DNA of 32,811 bases from a virus (taxonomy: Duplodnaviria; Heunggongvirae; Uroviricota; Caudoviricetes), in the IMG/VR virus record IMGVR_UViG_2563366806_000002. One strand, given 5' to 3'. The notes under the pieces were generated by a model. It was not told the DNA's origin. It ran no database searches and saw only the letters and a list, made by a program, of their open reading frames with translations. This document shows, in pieces, positions 2,896 to 32,811 of the stretch (the stretch's first letter is position 1; every line of letters starts with the position of its first letter). The translations under genes and the position numbers were made by a program.

Positions 2896-3077
2896 TGAGC
2901 CAGATGCTGAGCATGTTGCGGCCCGCGCTGGTTCTGCTGCTGGCTTTCATGGTGGTAGCGGTGGACTTCACCAGTTATCTGCTCTCAGCAGTAGGCGATC
3001 TGTTCTTCGTGGGGGCGCTCGTTGTTCTGGTATGGCCTGCAATTAAGCCAGCCAAAGAGCAGCAGGGCGACGAGTAA
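2895..3077 (+). CDS. Small hydrophobic membrane protein, translationally coupled to the TerB-like gene
   Basis: 60-aa ORF, two hydrophobic stretches; start overlaps the upstream stop (TGATG). Confidence 0.45.
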   Translation: MSQMLSMLRPALVLLLAFMVVAVDFTSYLLSAVGDLFFVGALVVLVWPAIKPAKEQQGDE

Positions 3078-3144
3078 GAGAGGCACCGGGAAACTGGTGC
3101 TTATCCGGGGCGTTACTTCCGAGTGGTGCGCCTGATAAGCGGCA

Positions 3145-10375: not shown

Positions 10376-12091
10376 TTAAAACTCCTCTACAAAACTGTCA
10401 CTACCGCCGCCGCTTTCGCTGCCGATCGGCTCGTTATACAAAGCTGTCATTGATGCCCAGGCGAGATCGCCGTGATTGCTGCCGCGTTTGCGGTCGGAAA
10501 CGTAGGTCATTACCCCGCCTTTCTGCACCTTGCGAACCGTCATAAATGACTGGACGAGATCCAGCATTCCCGCATCCACTTCCAGACGACCGGCACGGAT
10601 CAACATAAGCGCTTTCAGCACCATGGCGCGCTTGAGTGGGGCGGAATACTGGTATTTCACCGCCAGCGGGAAGAACTTGATTACCAGTTGCCAGACGGCA
10701 TCACCAATGCCGGTGGCATCAATCGCGATGTGCTGGACGTTGTAACGCTCCGTCAGCCCCTGAATGGCCTTTGCCTGTTCCTCAAACTCCATCCCGCGAA
10801 GCTGGATGCGTTCAATGATGCGGAACTTGCCGCCCGATACCGCTGGCGGAACGATGACGACCAGTCCGGCAGAGTCACCGTTACCGCTTCCCCCGTTGGG
10901 GTCATAGCCTACCCATACACTGCGATCGCCTATCGGTTTGGGTGCGAATGGGTTCCAGTCGGGCCATACATCATCGTTGAAGCCGTCAACGCAGCAGCCG
11001 ATCATGGCGTTGTAGTTAAAGGCGCGCTCTCCCGCAGTCACGAAGCGGCAACGATAGAGGTTGTCGTATTCCTCCGGGGAGTTTTCCATCTTGATGGTTT
11101 CAATTTTCACCAGGTTGAAGCCGAGTTTTACCGCGTCTTCAATGGTGACAATCTGCCGCCAAATCCCATCCCCGCCCAGCTTGCCGTTTTTCAGCGCCTT
11201 GTGGCTGACGTCTATTTCTACCCGTTCACCTCTGGGCCTTGCCTTGTTGAACAGGTCGCCAGTCCAGAAGGCATAAGCCTCATGCTCCTCTGTGGATGGC
11301 GTGGAAAAGTAGGTACGGCGCAGCCCTTCATGGGTTGCCATGCCTGCGGCGACTTTACGCAGCTCAAGGAAATTGTTGATCCAGAATGCTTCATCAAGAT
11401 ACAGATCGCCGGTGTAGCTCTGTGCCGTCGCTGCTGAGGTGCCGAGAAAGTAGAACGTTGCGCCGTTGCTTAGGGTGATGGCGTCGCCGCCTTTCAGCTC
11501 AACGCCAACCTGTGCCGCCAGTAGTTGGATGAACTTCTTGAACTGGAACGCCTGGGCGCGGCTGGCTGACAGAAAGATCTGGTTGTTGCCAGTTTCCAGC
11601 GCCCGTAACAGTGCTTCGCGGGCAAAGTACCAGGTGGCACCAATCTGGCGCGATTTGAGGATAAAGCGGTTGCGGCGTTCGCGCTGCTTGTACCAGCGTT
11701 TTTGATGCTCGTAGAGCGAATCCAGCACCAGAGCGCGCAGATCCCCGATCTGCTCTTCCGTAAAGTGGTTTTTCGGCTTTTTCTCGCGGCCTTTCTCTTC
11801 GCTGCGGCGCTCTTCGCGCTCCATCCTCACCAGTTGACGGGTTAACAGGTCAATGGTTTTGAAGTCATGCGCCGTCAGGTCTGGCTTTTCCGTCAGACGT
11901 AACAGCCGCACCTGCATCCGATCCTGTACGCGCTCCAGCGCTGTGGACTCGTCCCACTTATCGCGGCGACGCCATGAATACAGGGTGTTGGTACTCACGC
12001 CGATCGATTTGGCGATCTGCGTGATGCTGTATGCCTGCCAGTACATGACCTTAGCGGCAATCCGTGGCTCATCGTGGGAAGTCTGTTTCAT
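10376..12091 (-). CDS. P: Terminase large (ATPase) subunit (P2 gpP-like); start may be internal
   Basis: 571 aa, Walker A-like KSRQIGATWYF, nuclease domain; adjacent to portal. Confidence 0.9.
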   Translation of the reverse strand: MKQTSHDEPRIAAKVMYWQAYSITQIAKSIGVSTNTLYSWRRRDKWDESTALERVQDRMQVRLLRLTEKPDLTAHDFKTIDLLTRQLVRMEREERRSEEKGREKKPKNHFTEEQIGDLRALVLDSLYEHQKRWYKQRERRNRFILKSRQIGATWYFAREALLRALETGNNQIFLSASRAQAFQFKKFIQLLAAQVGVELKGGDAITLSNGATFYFLGTSAATAQSYTGDLYLDEAFWINNFLELRKVAAGMATHEGLRRTYFSTPSTEEHEAYAFWTGDLFNKARPRGERVEIDVSHKALKNGKLGGDGIWRQIVTIEDAVKLGFNLVKIETIKMENSPEEYDNLYRCRFVTAGERAFNYNAMIGCCVDGFNDDVWPDWNPFAPKPIGDRSVWVGYDPNGGSGNGDSAGLVVIVPPAVSGGKFRIIERIQLRGMEFEEQAKAIQGLTERYNVQHIAIDATGIGDAVWQLVIKFFPLAVKYQYSAPLKRAMVLKALMLIRAGRLEVDAGMLDLVQSFMTVRKVQKGGVMTYVSDRKRGSNHGDLAWASMTALYNEPIGSESGGGSDSFVEEF

Positions 12092-12137
12092 GGTGGCAGA
12101 GTACCGCGCCCGCGCGCGCGTCGCTTCGGGTTGTCAT

Positions 12138-12155
12138 TGTCGGAAAACGGCAACA
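12138..12155. promoter_or_regulatory. TGT-N12-ACA dyad in the P/O divergent late promoter region (Ogr/Delta-type activator box candidate)
   Basis: TGTcggaaaacggcaACA read from sequence, 83 bp upstream of the O start. Confidence 0.45.
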
Positions 12156-18201: not shown

Positions 18202-18293
18202 CCCATTTCTGCAGTACTGTTAAAAGTGACAGTGCTCGATGCTTTTTCCCGCCACTGTCATAACTGGCAGTGTCTGCCGGTACCACCCTCCAT

Positions 18294-18311
18294 TGTTACC
18301 AACCCCTGACA
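18294..18311. promoter_or_regulatory. TGT-N12-ACA dyad upstream of gpV (candidate late promoter activator box)
   Basis: TGTtaccaacccctgACA, centre 80 bp upstream of the V ATG. Confidence 0.45.
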
Positions 18312-18381
18312 ACGCCAGCGCGTTGCTTGCGCGCGCGTGGATCATGAAACTGGCTGTAAATTTAATAACGCAAGCCAGCTT

Positions 18382-19017
18382 ATGAACCTGAATGAACTCT
18401 ATCGCCTGATCTGTAACCTTGTCCGTATTGGTACGGTGACGGATGTTGATCTTGCTGCTGAGCCGCCAGTTGCGCGAGTCTCAACGGGAGAGAATACAAC
18501 GGACTGGATTCGCTGGGCGGCTTTGCGCGCCGGAAAGGCTGTTACATGGTGGGCACCTACGCCAGGCGAACAGGTGTTACTTTTTGCCCCATGCGGCGAT
18601 CTGGAAAATGCCGTCATCATGGGCAGCTTGTACAGCGATAGCGTGAAGCCACCGGATAACGGTGAAACGTCAAATGTCACTTTGTACCCTGACGGGGCAA
18701 AGGTTCTGTATGACCCGGAAACCGGCGCACTGGCTGCTACTGGTATTAAGAGCGCAACCGTAGAGGCGTCTGACTCTATCGCCGCGACTGCCCCCAAAAT
18801 GACCTGTACCGCAACAACCTCAATCACCCTTGATACGCCAGAAGTGATCTGCACTAAAAAGCTCTCATGCTCCACGTTTGAGATGAAACAGGGCGGCAAG
18901 ATGACCGGCAATGTTGAGCATAGCGGCGGCAGCTTTACATCAAATGGCGTTGTGGTGCATACCCACAAACATGGCGGCGTAGAACGTGGCGGAAGCCAGA
19001 CGGACGGCCCACAATGA
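18382..19017 (+). CDS. V: Baseplate spike/assembly protein (P2 gpV-like)
   Basis: WWAPTPGEQVLL, TLDTPEVICTKKL and VVHTHKHGG match recalled P2 V; start at ATG 18382. Confidence 0.85.
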   Translation: MNLNELYRLICNLVRIGTVTDVDLAAEPPVARVSTGENTTDWIRWAALRAGKAVTWWAPTPGEQVLLFAPCGDLENAVIMGSLYSDSVKPPDNGETSNVTLYPDGAKVLYDPETGALAATGIKSATVEASDSIAATAPKMTCTATTSITLDTPEVICTKKLSCSTFEMKQGGKMTGNVEHSGGSFTSNGVVVHTHKHGGVERGGSQTDGPQ

Positions 19018-22209: not shown

Positions 22210-22811
22210 TGAATAAAGCTGTATTAAATAGTGAACTCATTGCCATAAAAGCGGGAGACATTATCATTTATAATTATGATGGTGAAACGCGTGAATATAT
22301 TTCTACATCAACTGAATATCTCGCTGTCGGCGTCGGTATTCCGGCATGTTCTTGTTTGGATGCACCAGGTACACATAAAGCTGGTTATGCAATCTGTCGC
22401 TCTGTAGATTTAAATTCATGGAAATATGTGCCAGATCATCGCGGTGAAATCGTCTATAGCACCGAAACAGGAGAATCGAAAGAAATCACAGCTCCGGGTG
22501 ATTATCCTGAAAATACAACCACTATCGCCCCGTTAACGCCATACGATGAATGGAATGGTGAGAAATGGGTGACAGATACCGAGGCACAGCATCGCGCCGC
22601 AGTAGACGCGGCAGAAGCACAGCGTCAGTCACTGATTGATACTGCAATGGCTTCCATTAGTCTGATTCAACTGAAATTACAGGCCGGGCGGAAACTGACG
22701 CAGGCAGAAACAACCCGGCTTAACGCTGTGCTGGATTACATTGACGCGGTGACGGCAACAGATACCAGCACCGCGCCGGATGTCATCTGGCCTGAACTGC
22801 CGGAGGAGTAG
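22206..22811 (+). CDS. Tail fibre assembly chaperone (gpG/Tfa-like)
   Basis: 201 aa; conserved Tfa C-terminal motif LDYIDAVTATDTSTAPDVIWPELP. Confidence 0.8.
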   Translation: MMNKAVLNSELIAIKAGDIIIYNYDGETREYISTSTEYLAVGVGIPACSCLDAPGTHKAGYAICRSVDLNSWKYVPDHRGEIVYSTETGESKEITAPGDYPENTTTIAPLTPYDEWNGEKWVTDTEAQHRAAVDAAEAQRQSLIDTAMASISLIQLKLQAGRKLTQAETTRLNAVLDYIDAVTATDTSTAPDVIWPELPEE

Positions 22812-23223
22812 GCCATTCAATATCTGGTGCACTGGAAGTATCGACCAGCTCCAGTGCGTCCAGATAATCCAGCCACAAATTATATTGCGCCAGTTCCTCA
22901 CCTTTCAGACGACCAATAGCCGCTTTACCAACCCATTGTCTACTGTTCATATAATCGTTGGCCTGATTAATCAATTGCTGCTTTTTAGTTTCGGCTGATG
23001 CAATTTGTTCTTCACGTGTTGGCGGTGGAACATCTGCCCATGCTGGCATTCCATCGTCTCCGGTAATTCTGTACTTACCGTCAGGCGGCGTATCATGGAA
23101 ATATTCCCTGAAAATAGCTTCGTCTATATCCACGCCTTTACCTTCGGGCCATTGGCCTTTTGCAGCGTAAACAGACTGGAGGGCATAAGGGTACGCCAGA
23201 TTATCAACATACAAATATTTCAT
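22783..23223 (-). CDS. Alternative tail fibre assembly chaperone (Tfa'), convergent with and overlapping the + strand tfa
   Basis: 146 aa with the same C-terminal motif LDYLDALELVDTSSAPDIEWP. Confidence 0.8.
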   Translation of the reverse strand: MKYLYVDNLAYPYALQSVYAAKGQWPEGKGVDIDEAIFREYFHDTPPDGKYRITGDDGMPAWADVPPPTREEQIASAETKKQQLINQANDYMNSRQWVGKAAIGRLKGEELAQYNLWLDYLDALELVDTSSAPDIEWPTPPAVQAR

Positions 23224-23225
23224 AA

Positions 23226-23555
23226 TTAACGCCCTTTCGCGTAGAAGGCTCCACCTTCAAAGCCATAGTTACAATGAGCAACGAAACCTGTTTTCGTCCA
23301 GTTAGTTGCGCCCCACATATTCCCACCACCAAAACCGCCGTCATATACAATCACTACGTCTGGCTCCTGCGTAAAAGGAATGGGGAAAGTCACATTTGTA
23401 GATACCGCCGCGGCGTTAGTCGGGAAATTAATTCTTCCCCACTGTTCAATTGAACCATCAGGCAATTTTTGCCAGCCAGATCCTGATGAATAAGCTGACA
23501 TGTCTGGTATCTGATTCGCCCCAGTCCCCACATTCCTTTTCGCCGCTTCTCCCAA
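23226..23555 (-). CDS. Start-less alternative tail-fibre C-terminal cassette (Hc')
   Basis: Gly-rich fibre-tip-like 109 aa; begins exactly at the shared GLGE junction found in H; no ATG or RBS of its own (track start is TTG). Confidence 0.7.
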   Translation of the reverse strand: MGEAAKRNVGTGANQIPDMSAYSSGSGWQKLPDGSIEQWGRINFPTNAAAVSTNVTFPIPFTQEPDVVIVYDGGFGGGNMWGATNWTKTGFVAHCNYGFEGGAFYAKGR

Positions 23556-23683: not shown

Positions 23684-24133
23684 TTAGAAATTCACCCCCG
23701 CTTTCACCATAGACAGCACATCATCGTTGGTAATTTCCGCCAGCTTCTCCCTGATATCCTCGCTGACCTTTTTCAGGGTGAGAGTAAAATCAATCTTCCG
23801 CGCTTTCCCGTCCTGAAAGAACTCAGTGCGATTCTGGGTTAACCCGTCGATCACATACATACCGTAAATCTTGCCGGTACCTTCAATCAGGGGCCAGGCT
23901 CTGCCGGTGTATGCCATTGTCTCCAGCGTAGTGAGCGACACATCGCCGCCGCTGATTTCCGGGTACAGCGTACCGGATAGCGTGATCGGCTCTTCATCCG
24001 GGCCTATGTACTGATAGCGCGGGGATTTCCCCACGCGATCGTTTTTGACGTGTCGCCATGTATTCGACTGGTTCGACGTCTGGTAGGGCGTCGTTTGCAG
24101 TGCAAACGGAAACATGCCCAATATCATCATCAT
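23684..24133 (-). CDS. U: Tail protein U
   Basis: 149-aa ORF after the tape measure on the minus strand; gpU-like. Confidence 0.85.
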   Translation of the reverse strand: MMMILGMFPFALQTTPYQTSNQSNTWRHVKNDRVGKSPRYQYIGPDEEPITLSGTLYPEISGGDVSLTTLETMAYTGRAWPLIEGTGKIYGMYVIDGLTQNRTEFFQDGKARKIDFTLTLKKVSEDIREKLAEITNDDVLSMVKAGVNF

Positions 24134-27553: not shown

Positions 27554-28069
27554 TTATAAGCCAATGTTAGCGCGGTGTTTTTCCATCATGTCAACGCCGC
27601 CAACTTTGTAGATCATATTGAGCACATCAACTTCAATGATTTCTTCGCCGTTGATGGTCAGCTTGTAATAGGTATTTTTCAGGGTGTACTTATGGGAAGT
27701 GTCATCCCCGGTTTTGGACGTACCCGGATCCATCTCCGTGAAGCGCCCGCGCGTCTGGATTTCAACGGGTACCGCTTCGCCGGTTGAATCATCTTGGTAA
27801 GACCCGGCATAGCGTGTTTGCATACCATCGGCGGTGGCGATGCCCCATTTTTTAAGCAGCCCCGCATCCATGCCGCCAAGGGTGATATCCATATCCAGCG
27901 CCCCGGCATCAAAGCCGAGATCGACCGCGACAGAACCCGGCATACCACCGGCCTGATAATCCTCTGTTTTGCGGGTTAACTTCGCCGGGGTGATTTCCGG
28001 CACCATGCCGAAATAGTTATCCCCGTCAAAGAACATGTTGAAGTATTTAAGTTTTTTAGGCAGAGCCAT
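27554..28069 (-). CDS. FII: Tail tube protein (P2 gpFII-like)
   Basis: 171-aa ORF with tube-protein similarity, between sheath and E. Confidence 0.9.
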   Translation of the reverse strand: MALPKKLKYFNMFFDGDNYFGMVPEITPAKLTRKTEDYQAGGMPGSVAVDLGFDAGALDMDITLGGMDAGLLKKWGIATADGMQTRYAGSYQDDSTGEAVPVEIQTRGRFTEMDPGTSKTGDDTSHKYTLKNTYYKLTINGEEIIEVDVLNMIYKVGGVDMMEKHRANIGL

Positions 28070-28081
28070 ACGCGCCCCCGG

Positions 28082-29278
28082 TTAGTTATTCACTGCGCTG
28101 GAAAACGTAGCGAAGTATTCATCAGTGAACTCCTGCACCAGGCTGAGATTTTCCAGCGGCGGGACAGGCGTGTAGTTGTATTTGATGGTGAGCTGCCCGT
28201 TGCGCAGCGTTTCGCTGGTATTCGGTTCAGGGTCGTACCAGCAGCGCGCACCCAGCAGCTTGCCCGCCGTCACATAGGACGTCAGCTTGCGGTTGATACC
28301 GTCAACGATATCTTTCACCAGCGACGGGGTGAGCGGCTTATCAACATAGGAGAAGTGAGCCTCTGCCACGGTATCCGCCACAATCTGAGCGGTACGGGTG
28401 TAGCTCTCAAAAATGTAGGTTTCTTCGTCGCAGGTACGTGATCCCCAGATGCGATAACCATCCTGTTTGATCAGGGTGGTGATGCCTGCGGCGTTCAGCT
28501 CGTCCGCATCGGTATCGGTGCCCTGTAGGGTGAAATAGATATCGCGATCCATCCCCAGCACGTTATTCACCGGCACGTTGGAAATGGTTTTGTGCCATCC
28601 CTGCGTTGCGTCGATTTTTGCTCGCATCCCTACCGCATGAGCACCCACCGGCACGGTGGCGTTTGCTCCCGCGTTGGTGTCGTAGCAAATGAAGTTAGGC
28701 CAGATCACCATCATTTCACGTTGGGCAAAATTCTCGCGGTACGTCTTCGCCTCTGCGATGGTGTTGCAGCCATTCGCGGATACGTAAGCAAAGGCGCGCA
28801 GTTTCTCAGCCATCACACCGAGCTGCGCCGCCACTGGCTGAGTATCAAGGCCGGGAACGGCAAGCACACGCGGGCGGACGCCAACACGCATCTCAGCCGA
28901 TAGCAGCGCATACATGCCGGTGAAAAGCCCGGTATCTGGGTCAGTACCGCCAATAACCAGTTGATCCTGCGTTGGGGCCGTGCCGCCTTCCGGGGGTACG
29001 ATTTTGGACGCATCAGCCACGCGGATCACAATGGTCTGTGGGCTGGTCTGGTCTGAAATGGCTTTCAGAGTGGTGAACAGGGTGCCGGTTTTGCCTGCTT
29101 TGCCCAGCATGTTAGCCACGCGGGTAATGAGTACAGGGGTATCCAGCGGGAAAGCTTCTTCGTCTGCATCGTCAGCGATACAAACGACGCCGATAACCGC
29201 CGAATCAATATCGGTGATCATCGTGCTCAGATCGGTGGTTTCCGTGACGGTTACACCGTGATGGTAATTTGTGGCCAT
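28082..29278 (-). CDS. FI: Tail sheath protein (P2 gpFI-like); ATG at 29278 (track ORF begins at TTG 29299)
   Basis: N-terminus MATNYHHGVTV parallels P2 FI MSDYHHGVQV; conserved C-terminus YTPVPPLENLSL. Confidence 0.9.
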   Translation of the reverse strand: MATNYHHGVTVTETTDLSTMITDIDSAVIGVVCIADDADEEAFPLDTPVLITRVANMLGKAGKTGTLFTTLKAISDQTSPQTIVIRVADASKIVPPEGGTAPTQDQLVIGGTDPDTGLFTGMYALLSAEMRVGVRPRVLAVPGLDTQPVAAQLGVMAEKLRAFAYVSANGCNTIAEAKTYRENFAQREMMVIWPNFICYDTNAGANATVPVGAHAVGMRAKIDATQGWHKTISNVPVNNVLGMDRDIYFTLQGTDTDADELNAAGITTLIKQDGYRIWGSRTCDEETYIFESYTRTAQIVADTVAEAHFSYVDKPLTPSLVKDIVDGINRKLTSYVTAGKLLGARCWYDPEPNTSETLRNGQLTIKYNYTPVPPLENLSLVQEFTDEYFATFSSAVNN

Positions 29279-29351
29279 GTAGTTGCCTCGCCAGGTCAAT
29301 GATTGCCACTTATCATTGCGACAATTGCCAGCCGGTGCGAGAGGTGGGCGT

Positions 29352-29369
29352 TGTCAGCAGACCGCAACA
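29352..29369. promoter_or_regulatory. TGT-N12-ACA dyad centred between the divergent FI and D starts (candidate shared late activator box)
   Basis: TGTcagcagaccgcaACA; 82 bp from the FI ATG and 80 bp from the D ATG. Confidence 0.45.
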
Positions 29370-29439
29370 ACAGCCACGCGTTGTCTGTACGCGCGCGCGT
29401 GGCGACGATGGTACCCTCACCAATGAGGGAACCAATAAG

Positions 29440-30567
29440 ATGTTGGATGATGATGCGCGTTATTCGCCCCGCCCGGCGTTCAGTATTCAGATTGAGGGCA
29501 AGCAGCTCACCGCGCTGGATGACCGTTTGATCTCGTTGTCGCTGACGGACAATCGGGGATTTGAAGCGGATACGCTTGATCTCACGCTGGATGATTCAGA
29601 CGGACAGATCGTTATGCCATCGCGTGGCGCGAAGATTTCCGTTTCGCTGGGCTGGGATAATGACCCGCTGATATTTAAAGGACTGTACACCGTTGATGAG
29701 GTTGCGCACCGTGGCCCGCCTGATCAGCTCACAATCAGCGCCCGCAGCGCAGACTTTCGCGACACGTTCAACGTGAAGCGTGAATATTCCTGGCACGATA
29801 TTACCGTGGGCGATGTGGTTGCCAGTATCGCCAGCCGGTACGACCTGCGAGCCGGGGTGAGTGAGGAACTGGCGAAGATTGAGATCGATCACGCAGACCA
29901 GACCAGTGAATCAGATATCAGCTTTCTCACCAGAATGGCGGATATGCTGGGTGCGGTTGCCACCGTTAAAAATGGCATGTTGCTGTTCATCACGCCGGGG
30001 CAGGGCTTAACCCAAAGCGGTAAACCATTACCGGCGATCAGCATTGTGCGGGCCAGCGGCGATAAGCACAGCTTTAGCATTGCCGATCGTGATGCTTATA
30101 CCGGCGTTACTGCCTACTGGCTGGATCTAAATTTCGGGAAGAAGCCTGCCACCACGGTACAGACAAACACCCGCAGACGCCGCAGAACAACCCAGCCGAA
30201 GAAGCCGAAAGAACCCGCCTCAAGCAGCAAAGAAGGGGATTACATGGCAGGCGCGGAAGGCAACGTATTCGTGATCCGCAAGACGTTCAAAACCGAGAAG
30301 GCAGCGAAGCGGGCAGCGGCGGCGAAGTGGAGCCAGTTACAGCGTGGCGCGGCGTCATTCTCCATCACGCTGGCGCGGGGCCGGGCGGATTTGTACCCGG
30401 AACAACCGGCAAGCGTATCGGGCTTTAAGTCCACGATTGATAACGGTTACTGGACGATTACCCGATGTGTGCATGATATCGGCAGCGGCGGCTTTACCAC
30501 CTCGCTGGAGCTGGAAGTTAAGATCGATGAATGGACGGCTGAGGCGGGTGACGAATCAACGGGTTAA
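29440..30567 (+). CDS. D: Tail protein D (P2 gpD-like, late control D family)
   Basis: ATG 29440 with RBS GAGGGA; N-terminus MLDDDARYSPRPAFSIQ is gpD-like (track ORF begins upstream at TTG 29269). Confidence 0.9.
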   Translation: MLDDDARYSPRPAFSIQIEGKQLTALDDRLISLSLTDNRGFEADTLDLTLDDSDGQIVMPSRGAKISVSLGWDNDPLIFKGLYTVDEVAHRGPPDQLTISARSADFRDTFNVKREYSWHDITVGDVVASIASRYDLRAGVSEELAKIEIDHADQTSESDISFLTRMADMLGAVATVKNGMLLFITPGQGLTQSGKPLPAISIVRASGDKHSFSIADRDAYTGVTAYWLDLNFGKKPATTVQTNTRRRRRTTQPKKPKEPASSSKEGDYMAGAEGNVFVIRKTFKTEKAAKRAAAAKWSQLQRGAASFSITLARGRADLYPEQPASVSGFKSTIDNGYWTITRCVHDIGSGGFTTSLELEVKIDEWTAEAGDESTG

Positions 30568-30613
30568 GCGTTATACTTGACGTGATATTAACCAGCCCAG
30601 AGGAGGCCCGCGT

Positions 30614-30856
30614 ATGGCAATGCGCTGTCCTCGCTGCCGTGCAGTTGCGAAAACTCGTACCAGTGTAGAGTTGAGTGATTTAGTGCGACGCAGTTATCAC
30701 CAGTGTCAAAACATGTTGTGCGGCTACTGCTTTACCAGCATGACGCAAATAGACGAATCATTAAACCAGACTCAGCCAGTCCCCGGCGCGGTGGTTCCTC
30801 AAGACGTTTTCCCGCGAAGTCATCACGGCGAAGATCAGCTTAGTCTGGTGTTGTAG
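30614..30856 (+). CDS. ogr: Ogr/Delta-family zinc-finger late transcription activator
   Basis: CPRC...YHQCQNMLCGYCF matches the Ogr zinc-finger pattern CPLC...YHQCQNVNC. Confidence 0.85.
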   Translation: MAMRCPRCRAVAKTRTSVELSDLVRRSYHQCQNMLCGYCFTSMTQIDESLNQTQPVPGAVVPQDVFPRSHHGEDQLSLVL

Positions 30857-30870
30857 TTTCGAAGCAAGGC

Positions 30871-30900
30871 AAAAGCCTGCCGGACAGGCAGGCTTATTGT
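30871..30900. terminator. Bidirectional hairpin terminator between ogr and the convergent downstream gene
   Basis: AGCCTGCC-ggaca-GGCAGGCT stem, A-run on one side and T-rich on the other. Confidence 0.6.
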
Positions 30901-31622
30901 TATTGCAGTTCTTTCAGTTCAACAATCTTACCAGTGGCTATATCTACTTTAGCGGAAACGGTGTTTTTTACCGTTGCCCCAAGAGCATTTGCGCCACGGA
31001 ATGTTGTCACAAATACTGCATATGGTTTTTTGTCTTTCTCAAACATTAATTGATGGGTGGTTTTGATATGTTTGTAGGATGAGTCATCGTTCATCTGTTC
31101 TTTGATCGCGACCTCTAAGGGGTAGTAGACGCCGTTATAGTCGCTCAGCATTTCATCGAAATTATCAAAATTTATACGGTCAGAAAGAGATGTTGCATCG
31201 CGGGTAAAATCTGAGTAACACCAATCAAGCACTTGATCGAGGTGTAGTTCTTCCGATTTTCTATGAGAATATTCGCTTAGGCAGTTGTAGAAGTCATTAC
31301 GTGCAGATTCAGGGATCTTTTTAAATTTAACATACGAGTTAACAATTTCGCGTCTGTCTTCCTTATCGTTCTTAACTCTCCATTCCTTTAGTGATAAATC
31401 GGCGTATTTAAATTTTTCTTCTTTAATCGGTGGGCGTTCTTGAGCGTTGCTTGAGGTAGAAGGGCGTAAACTGGCCCCTATTGCAGCAACGACTAAGCAC
31501 ATTGAGAAGTAGAAAAGAGACGATTTTTTTCTGTTTGGCATGAAAACCCACTTTGGATTTATAAGCCCGATCCAGAAAGCGATACCGGCTATCGCTGCAA
31601 TGATAGTGATGATTTTTTCCAT
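30900..31622 (-). CDS. AT-rich membrane-anchored protein of unknown function (candidate cargo/moron)
   Basis: 240 aa; two N-terminal hydrophobic helices then a charged soluble domain; strong RBS GGAGGG; clearly lower GC than flanking DNA. Confidence 0.6.
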   Translation of the reverse strand: MEKIITIIAAIAGIAFWIGLINPKWVFMPNRKKSSLFYFSMCLVVAAIGASLRPSTSSNAQERPPIKEEKFKYADLSLKEWRVKNDKEDRREIVNSYVKFKKIPESARNDFYNCLSEYSHRKSEELHLDQVLDWCYSDFTRDATSLSDRINFDNFDEMLSDYNGVYYPLEVAIKEQMNDDSSYKHIKTTHQLMFEKDKKPYAVFVTTFRGANALGATVKNTVSAKVDIATGKIVELKELQ

Positions 31623-31827: not shown

Positions 31828-31908
31828 ATCCTCAATTTGCCTGCTGCTTAATGCATTGCAGATGATTTGCTTCCGTTATACTAGCGTCAGTTGATAGCGG
31901 GAGTATTT

Positions 31909-32811
31909 ATGAATCAATCTTATGGACGGCTGGTCAGTCGGGCGGCGATTGCTGCGACGGCGATGGCTTCGCTGCTATTGCTGATTAAAATTTTTGCATG
32001 GTGGTATACCGGGTCGGTGAGTATTCTCGCCGCGCTGGTGGATTCGCTGGTGGATATCGGCGCGTCGTTGACGAATTTACTGGTGGTGCGATATTCCCTG
32101 CAACCTGCCGACGATAATCACTCGTTTGGTCACGGTAAAGCTGAGTCCCTCGCGGCGCTGGCGCAAAGTATGTTTATCTCCGGTTCAGCACTATTCCTGT
32201 TTTTGACGGGTATTCAACATCTGATATCTCCAACACCGATGACAGATCCAGGCGTCGGGGTTATCGTGACAATTGTGGCGCTAATTTGTACGATTATCCT
32301 TGTCTCGTTTCAGCGTTGGGTGGTGCGCCGGACGCAAAGCCAGGCGGTGCGGGCTGATATGCTACATTACCAGTCTGATGTTATGATGAACGGCGCAATT
32401 CTGCTGGCGCTGGGGTTGTCCTGGTACGGCTGGCATCGCGCCGATGCTCTGTTTGCATTGGGAATCGGCATCTATATTTTATATAGCGCGTTACGCATGG
32501 GATATGAGGCGGTACAGTCATTACTGGATCGCGCATTACCTGATGAGGAACGGCAAGAAATTATTGATATCGTGACTTCCTGGCCGGGTGTTAGCGGCGC
32601 TCACGATCTTCGCACGCGGCAGTCAGGGCCGACCCGCTTTATTCAGATTCATTTGGAAATGGAAGACTCTCTGCCTTTGGTTCAGGCACATATGGTGGCG
32701 GATCAGGTAGAGCAGGCTATTTTACGGCGTTTTCCGGGATCGGATGTGATTATCCATCAGGACCCCTGTTCCGTCGTACCCAGGGAGGGTAAACGGTCTA
32801 TGCTTTCATAA
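31909..32811 (+). CDS. fieF: Cation-diffusion facilitator FieF/YiiP (ferrous iron / zinc efflux), host gene
   Basis: Translation from ATG 31909 ([54 protein letters not shown]...) matches enterobacterial FieF as recalled; stop at window end. Confidence 0.95.

Follow-up and report, generated by a model that had tools for sequence, protein, structure and literature searches.

A single symmetric activator site between the divergently transcribed tail genes FI and D probably controls two late promoters that read away from each other. The site lies in a 32,811-nucleotide stretch of DNA (referred to here as the window) that contains a P2-like (Peduoviridae) prophage; an integrase gene occupies 1-981 and a cation-efflux gene of the host 31891-32811. 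By analogy with phage P2, we consider it about 80% probable that one Ogr-bound dyad, positioned at -55, activates both the FI promoter (pFI) and the D promoter (pD). The sequence-only reading of this DNA had proposed one Ogr-type box for two late units, and the in silico evidence supports that proposal through a conserved dyad, mirror-image -10 hexamers, the promoter geometry of P2 and an encoded Ogr. In the proposed mechanism, an Ogr-family zinc-finger activator would bind the dyad at 29350-29371, near -55 relative to each of two late promoters that point away from each other. To the left, a promoter with the -10 AATGAT (29317 to 29312) and a start near 29305 would drive FI-FII-E-T-U; to the right, one with the -10 GACGAT (29404-29409) and a start near 29416 would drive D and then, by read-through, ogr. 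The two-fold symmetry of the site would allow bound Ogr to recruit RNA polymerase to either side, as at the P2 pP and pO promoters. [quoted passage not shown]

FI, FII, E, T and U read leftward, and D and ogr read rightward, from an intergenic region of 161 nt that contains one box only. The leftward unit is headed by the tail sheath gene FI (28082-29278, minus strand; Pfam Phage_sheath_1), whose product is 52% identical to P2 FI. It continues through the tube gene FII (27554-28069, minus strand; Pfam Phage_tube) and ends on its left, at 23684, with U (23684-24133, minus strand; Pfam Phage_P2_GpU). The rightward unit, D-ogr, is headed by D, the tail or baseplate hub gene (29440-30567, plus strand; Pfam Phage_GPD). 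Judged by these Pfam assignments, the box is located upstream of late morphogenetic operons, with the FI sheath operon on its left and D on its right. The core of the box, TGTcagcagaccgcaACA, is a TGT-N12-ACA at 29352-29369 and lies inside the perfect dyad GTTGT-N12-ACAAC (29350-29371, no strand), which has its centre at 29360.5 and which we regard as a putative Ogr-type activator box. The dyad TGTCAGCAGACCGCAACA had been placed at 29352-29369 from the sequence alone, and we found it at those coordinates. The distances to the two start codons were also given correctly, being 82.5 nt from the dyad centre to the FI ATG (A at 29278, minus strand) and 79.5 nt to the D ATG (29440, plus strand). For the box upstream of V, the claimed spacing held at 79.5 nt, with the correction that the V ATG is at 18382, not 18383. 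Elsewhere among the tail genes, just after H and G and on the opposite (minus) strand, 22783-23223 encodes a second tail-fibre assembly protein and 23226-23555 the C-terminal fragment of a tail fibre; the pair looks like the spare cassette of an invertible fibre segment.

Two further boxes of this type, neither assigned a strand, accompany late genes in the window: one at 12138-12155 lies between the P and O late promoters, which diverge from it, and corresponds in position to the pO/pP site annotated in P2, and the other, a TGT-N12-ACA at 18294-18311, belongs to the V late promoter. Measured from the box centres, all five half-promoters of the window have a hexamer of the form xAxxxT at +43.5 to +48.5 (P, TACTCT; O, AATGAT; V, GAAACT; FI, AATGAT; D, GACGAT). 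The predicted -10 of the leftward FI promoter (AATGAT, 29312-29317, minus strand) is identical in both sequence and offset to that of the O promoter of the same phage, and it is accompanied by a -35 region matching the consensus at 2/6 positions. On the other side, the predicted -10 of the rightward D promoter (GACGAT, 29404-29409, plus strand) matches at 3/6 positions and its -35-like element, TTGTCT, at 4/6. From the starts in the P2 record, transcription of FI is predicted to begin 55.5 nt from the centre, at about 29305 (29303-29307, minus strand), and the same P2 geometry puts the D start at about 29416 (29414-29418, plus strand). The predicted FI leader is therefore about 27 nt long, with a ribosome-binding site GAGG at 29286-29289 (minus strand), and the predicted D leader about 24 nt, with GAGGG at 29425-29429. 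A sigma70 consensus scan of the region found no promoter reading outward from the box to FI or D. The single match that it returned, at 29288-29316 on the plus strand (TCGCCA-17-TATCAT), overlaps the FI -10 and was set aside as being at chance level (1 found vs 0.8 expected), and a "terminator" match in the scanned region was merely a self-complementary (CG)n tract.

The same geometry bears on two start codons outside the FI/D junction. The ATG of P, the terminase large subunit gene, is at 12091, only 55.5 nt from the centre of the P/O box (12146.5). It thus coincides with the pP start predicted from P2, and the P mRNA would be leaderless unless translation starts at Met15. The P reading frame has no earlier start codon, and the alignment with P2 gpP begins at residue 6 of the window protein. 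Similarly, in a Yersinia aleksiciae locus (L018, 2431-2497), the D ATG coincides with the predicted start, the box centre being 55.5 nt away, and this D may be a leaderless late gene or one with a wrongly assigned start codon.

In the P2 RefSeq record, activator sites and transcription starts are annotated for pP, pO, pV and pF. A single feature, "activator binding site; pO, pP promoters" (3057-3087), stands between the divergent starts of P (3016, minus strand) and O (3127, plus strand), which are 111 bp apart, or 55.5 nt to each side. The annotated P2 starts are 55.5-57.5 nt from their dyad centres, and xAxxxT is found at +43.5 for pP (TAGCCT), pO (GAAACT) and pV (CAATCT) and at +44.5 for pF (GAAAAT). 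The FI/D site shares with P2 pP/pO the one dyad midway between back-to-back promoters, the hexamers at 43.5 nt on each side and a small Ogr zinc-finger activator, whose role in the window is predicted. It differs in being located between FI and D, in having predicted starts, in its perfect dyad (GTTGT/ACAAC, whereas that of P2 pP/pO is TGT-N12-CCA) and in the (CG)n tract on its D side, which is absent from the P2 late promoters. A box shared by divergent late promoters is already known from P2 pP/pO, and in phage Smp131 the promoters PP' and PO' are likewise one 18-nt box read in both directions (PMC3931495); the FI/D site is a new instance at another junction.

The divergent layout, with FI leftward and D-ogr rightward, is widespread. 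It is also present in the Salmonella phages SEN4 and SEN5 (Senquatrovirus), which are the nearest phage records to the window (80.6% DNA identity in the region), in P88 (Xuanwuvirus), phiT5282H (Novemvirus) and Gemsvirus, in the Klebsiella phages 3LV2017 and ST16-OXA48phi5.4, in Klebsiella phages of Reipivirus and Reginaelenavirus, and in others. The closest proteins are those of prophages of Dryocola sp. and Enterobacter soli, to which D, FI and Ogr are 97-100% identical. The D protein identified 41 genome loci, in hosts that include Xenorhabdus, Yersinia, Pectobacterium, Erwinia, Serratia and Klebsiella, and 36 of them have this layout; the remaining five show no upstream match to FI, and in three of these D is matched only in part. 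SEN4/SEN5, P88, phiT5282H, Reipivirus, Reginaelenavirus and the Enterobacterales prophages share with the window both the position of the box and the mirror -10s. In nearly all relatives, T[GC]T-N12-ACA occurs 75.5-88.5 nt (mostly 82.5) from the FI start, and three loci that first seemed to lack a box (L031, L032 and L041) have CCT-N12-ACA at the expected place. In many relatives the FI-side half-site is degenerate, being TCT or CCT where the window retains TGT, and the D side has ACAACAAAAA.

To compare the two sides, the FI/D loci were anchored on the box centre and reduced to 19 clusters of less than 75% identity. The hexamer xAxxxT was present at 43.5 nt in 18 of the 19 clusters in the direction of FI, where it reads xAxxAT in 18/19, and equally in 18/19 in the direction of D. 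At the other offsets from 30.5 to 69.5 nt, the pattern was found in no more than four clusters, and on the D side in no more than three. In the cluster lacking the mirror hexamer at 43.5 nt, it is one base out in the anchored alignment. Columns kept in at least 17 of the 19 clusters comprise the half-sites (T.T and ACA), AT..T on the FI side, an A and a T on the D side, and four isolated positions, and this pattern of conserved sequence is the footprint that would be expected of a symmetric bidirectional activator-dependent promoter. Since the relatives are homologous, conservation among the clusters reflects constraint rather than independent origins.

As a control, we examined 16 non-redundant canonical P2-type pF regions, in which the FI operon ends with D (L053-L132). 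Their boxes, 80.5-82.5 nt from the FI ATG, are of the form TGT-N12-CCA with an invariant distal TGT, and usually a rho-independent terminator hairpin occupies the far side, immediately upstream of the box. The forward hexamer (GAAAAT or GACAAT) was present in all 16, and the mirror xAxxxT in one. Set against 18/19 in the divergent loci, this frequency of 1/16 indicates that the mirror -10 goes with a divergent D. In P2 itself, the distance from the pF box centre to the FI ATG is 82.5 nt, identical to that in the window, and the conserved half-site is the FI-distal TGT both in P2 pF and in the divergent FI/D lineage. The two differ in that D is the last gene of the P2 operon FI-FII-E-T-U-D, whereas in the window it is split off and reads away from the box.

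The two late units had been attributed, from the window's sequence, to an inversion. Because the box-to-FI distance is identical in P2 and the window, the data fit an inversion in which pF moved together with FI-U, so that the dyad came to face D. Such an inversion would not be an event particular to the window: judging from the relatives' sequences, the divergent arrangement is an old trait common to several Peduoviridae genera and many Enterobacterales prophages.

The two halves of the site are not alike. The D-side spacer (plus strand) contains the -35-like TTGTCT at 29381-29386, at 17-nt spacing from the -10, and a (CG)5 tract at 29390-29399. On the D side, 16/19 clusters carry an alternating (CG)n tract of 6 nt or more, some 26-40 nt away from the centre; on the FI side, 2/19 do. 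Within the window, the D (29390-29399), V (18326-18338) and P (12106-12120) promoters have such tracts, roughly between -30 and -16 relative to the predicted start, and the D half resembles the V promoter, including the layout of the tract. On the FI side, a (g/a)CGTGA is kept at +18.5 to +23.5. When the five half-promoters were put into a free multiple alignment, little emerged that the anchored comparison had not already shown. The -35-like match on the D side is poorly conserved (1-4/6 in relatives), and the weak TTGTCT makes some degree of Ogr-independent activity on this side possible.

The presumed activator is encoded just after D. The ogr homologue (30614-30856, plus strand; Pfam Ogr_Delta, E = 3e-14) specifies 80 amino acids, and its translation contains C5-X2-C8-X22-C31-X4-C36, an intact copy of CX2CX22CX4C, which is cited as the zinc motif of Ogr (PMC3931495). 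A promoter scan found a sigma70-like match, GTGACG-18-TATACT, just upstream of ogr (30548-30577), and a terminator scan found a terminator just after it (30873-30895). In this respect the window parallels P2, whose record gives ogr a sigma70 promoter and a terminator of its own. Given the sigma70-like match, Ogr can precede pD activity, which would then reinforce it by read-through. Between this terminator and the host cation-efflux gene, on the minus strand, there is a 240-amino-acid open reading frame (30900-31622) with no Pfam match but a strong match to phrog_3403 (unknown function; E = 4e-110), which is probably a cargo gene at the prophage end.

These features also allow a different assignment, in which the box serves FI only, as its P_F site, and D-ogr has a weak sigma70 promoter that does not depend on Ogr (TTGTCT-17-GACGAT) or is read from other starts. 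The 4/6 match to the -35 consensus at 17-nt spacing is compatible with this assignment, as are the sigma70 promoter of P2 ogr and the box-to-FI distance, which equals that of P2 P_F exactly and shows P_F ancestry. However, the offset of the D-side -10 from the dyad is exact in 18/19 clusters despite the diverged sequence between them, and an unrelated promoter would have no reason to hold such an offset. Moreover, GACGAT is a poor -10, the -35-like match falls as low as 1/6 in relatives, the D half is like the V late promoter of the same phage, and the mirror hexamer goes with divergent D, being almost confined to it. We therefore consider an FI-only box unlikely.

The direction assigned to each -10 rests on analogy with the starts annotated in P2. 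Because xAxxAT reads as xATxxT on the opposite strand, sequence by itself leaves that direction unfixed, and the two promoters might instead face each other and read through the box to the genes on the far side, with the box downstream of both starts (e.g., as a repressor site). Such an arrangement is very unlikely, however. In the P2 record, the starts at the homologous sites (pP/pO and pF) are annotated back-to-back, the box being at -55. Canonical P_F regions carry the FI-side hexamer only, and leaders from face-to-face promoters would be about 115 nt long and would cross the activator site.

Support for the shared Ogr box also comes from motif counts within the window. The bare TGT-N12-ACA is at chance frequency (6 found vs 6.2 expected), and its count, not being enriched, was dropped as evidence. 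The extended form TTGT-N12-ACAA was found three times against 0.31 expected, a number reached in 0 of 100 shuffles, and all three sites are upstream of late operons (P/O at 12137, V at 18293 and FI/D at 29351). A composite pattern that joins the box to the two key -10 positions of xAxxxT at a fixed offset (T[GC]T-N12-ACA-N35-A-N3-T) gave six matches against 1.1 expected, and again none of 100 shuffles reached that number. Each of the three boxes accounts for two of these, one per direction, and five of the six face a late gene. The sixth runs out of the V box to the left (18254-18311, minus strand) and was discarded as probably due to chance, because S is there on the plus strand and the minus-strand open reading frame has no family match. 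That the FI/D dyad is itself a product of chance, or the site of an unrelated host regulator, is extremely improbable: the bare motif is no more frequent than expected and unrelated regulators (e.g., PpsR/CrtJ) use the same loose motif, but the position is kept across Enterobacterales prophages, both the extended and the composite motif exceed their expected counts, the prophage encodes a cognate Ogr, and an Rfam search of 29150-29550 matched no family.

Literature searches, to which the classic P2 promoter papers and the P2 review were external, yielded no account of a bidirectional FI/D promoter. Nor did we find a paper describing the promoters of the relatives with divergent FI and D, and the word "promoter" is absent from the paper on SEN4/SEN5. 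In published annotations, small hypothetical CDSs are placed inside the FI-D promoter region of SEN5 (SEN5_27; L001, 3364-3516) and P88 (gp50; L002, 3336-3467), and the annotated FI start extends over the promoter by 15 codons in phiT5282H (L003, 3308) and by 42 codons in ST16-OXA48phi5.4 (L004, 1863). Because homology among the FI proteins starts further downstream, these small CDSs and long FI starts look like miscalls.

For the tail genes of a widespread P2-like group, the result is a promoter map predicted to within a few bases. The group includes Senquatrovirus, Xuanwuvirus, Novemvirus, Reipivirus and others, in which spurious open reading frames or over-long FI genes are annotated at this place. 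The FI/D site extends the known pP/pO design and will not surprise specialists. A symmetric activator site lets an inversion split an operon without loss of late control; given the old pF box, the far side needed only a -10 at the mirror position. A more speculative extension, which we hold to be quite improbable, is that splitting off D-ogr under one symmetric Ogr site created a short positive-feedback unit (Ogr to pD to D-ogr) that is coupled to, or competes with, firing of the sheath operon, with the (CG)n tract perhaps setting the balance in a manner sensitive to topology or replication. If true, the (CG)n tract could bear on the replication requirement of P2-type late transcription.
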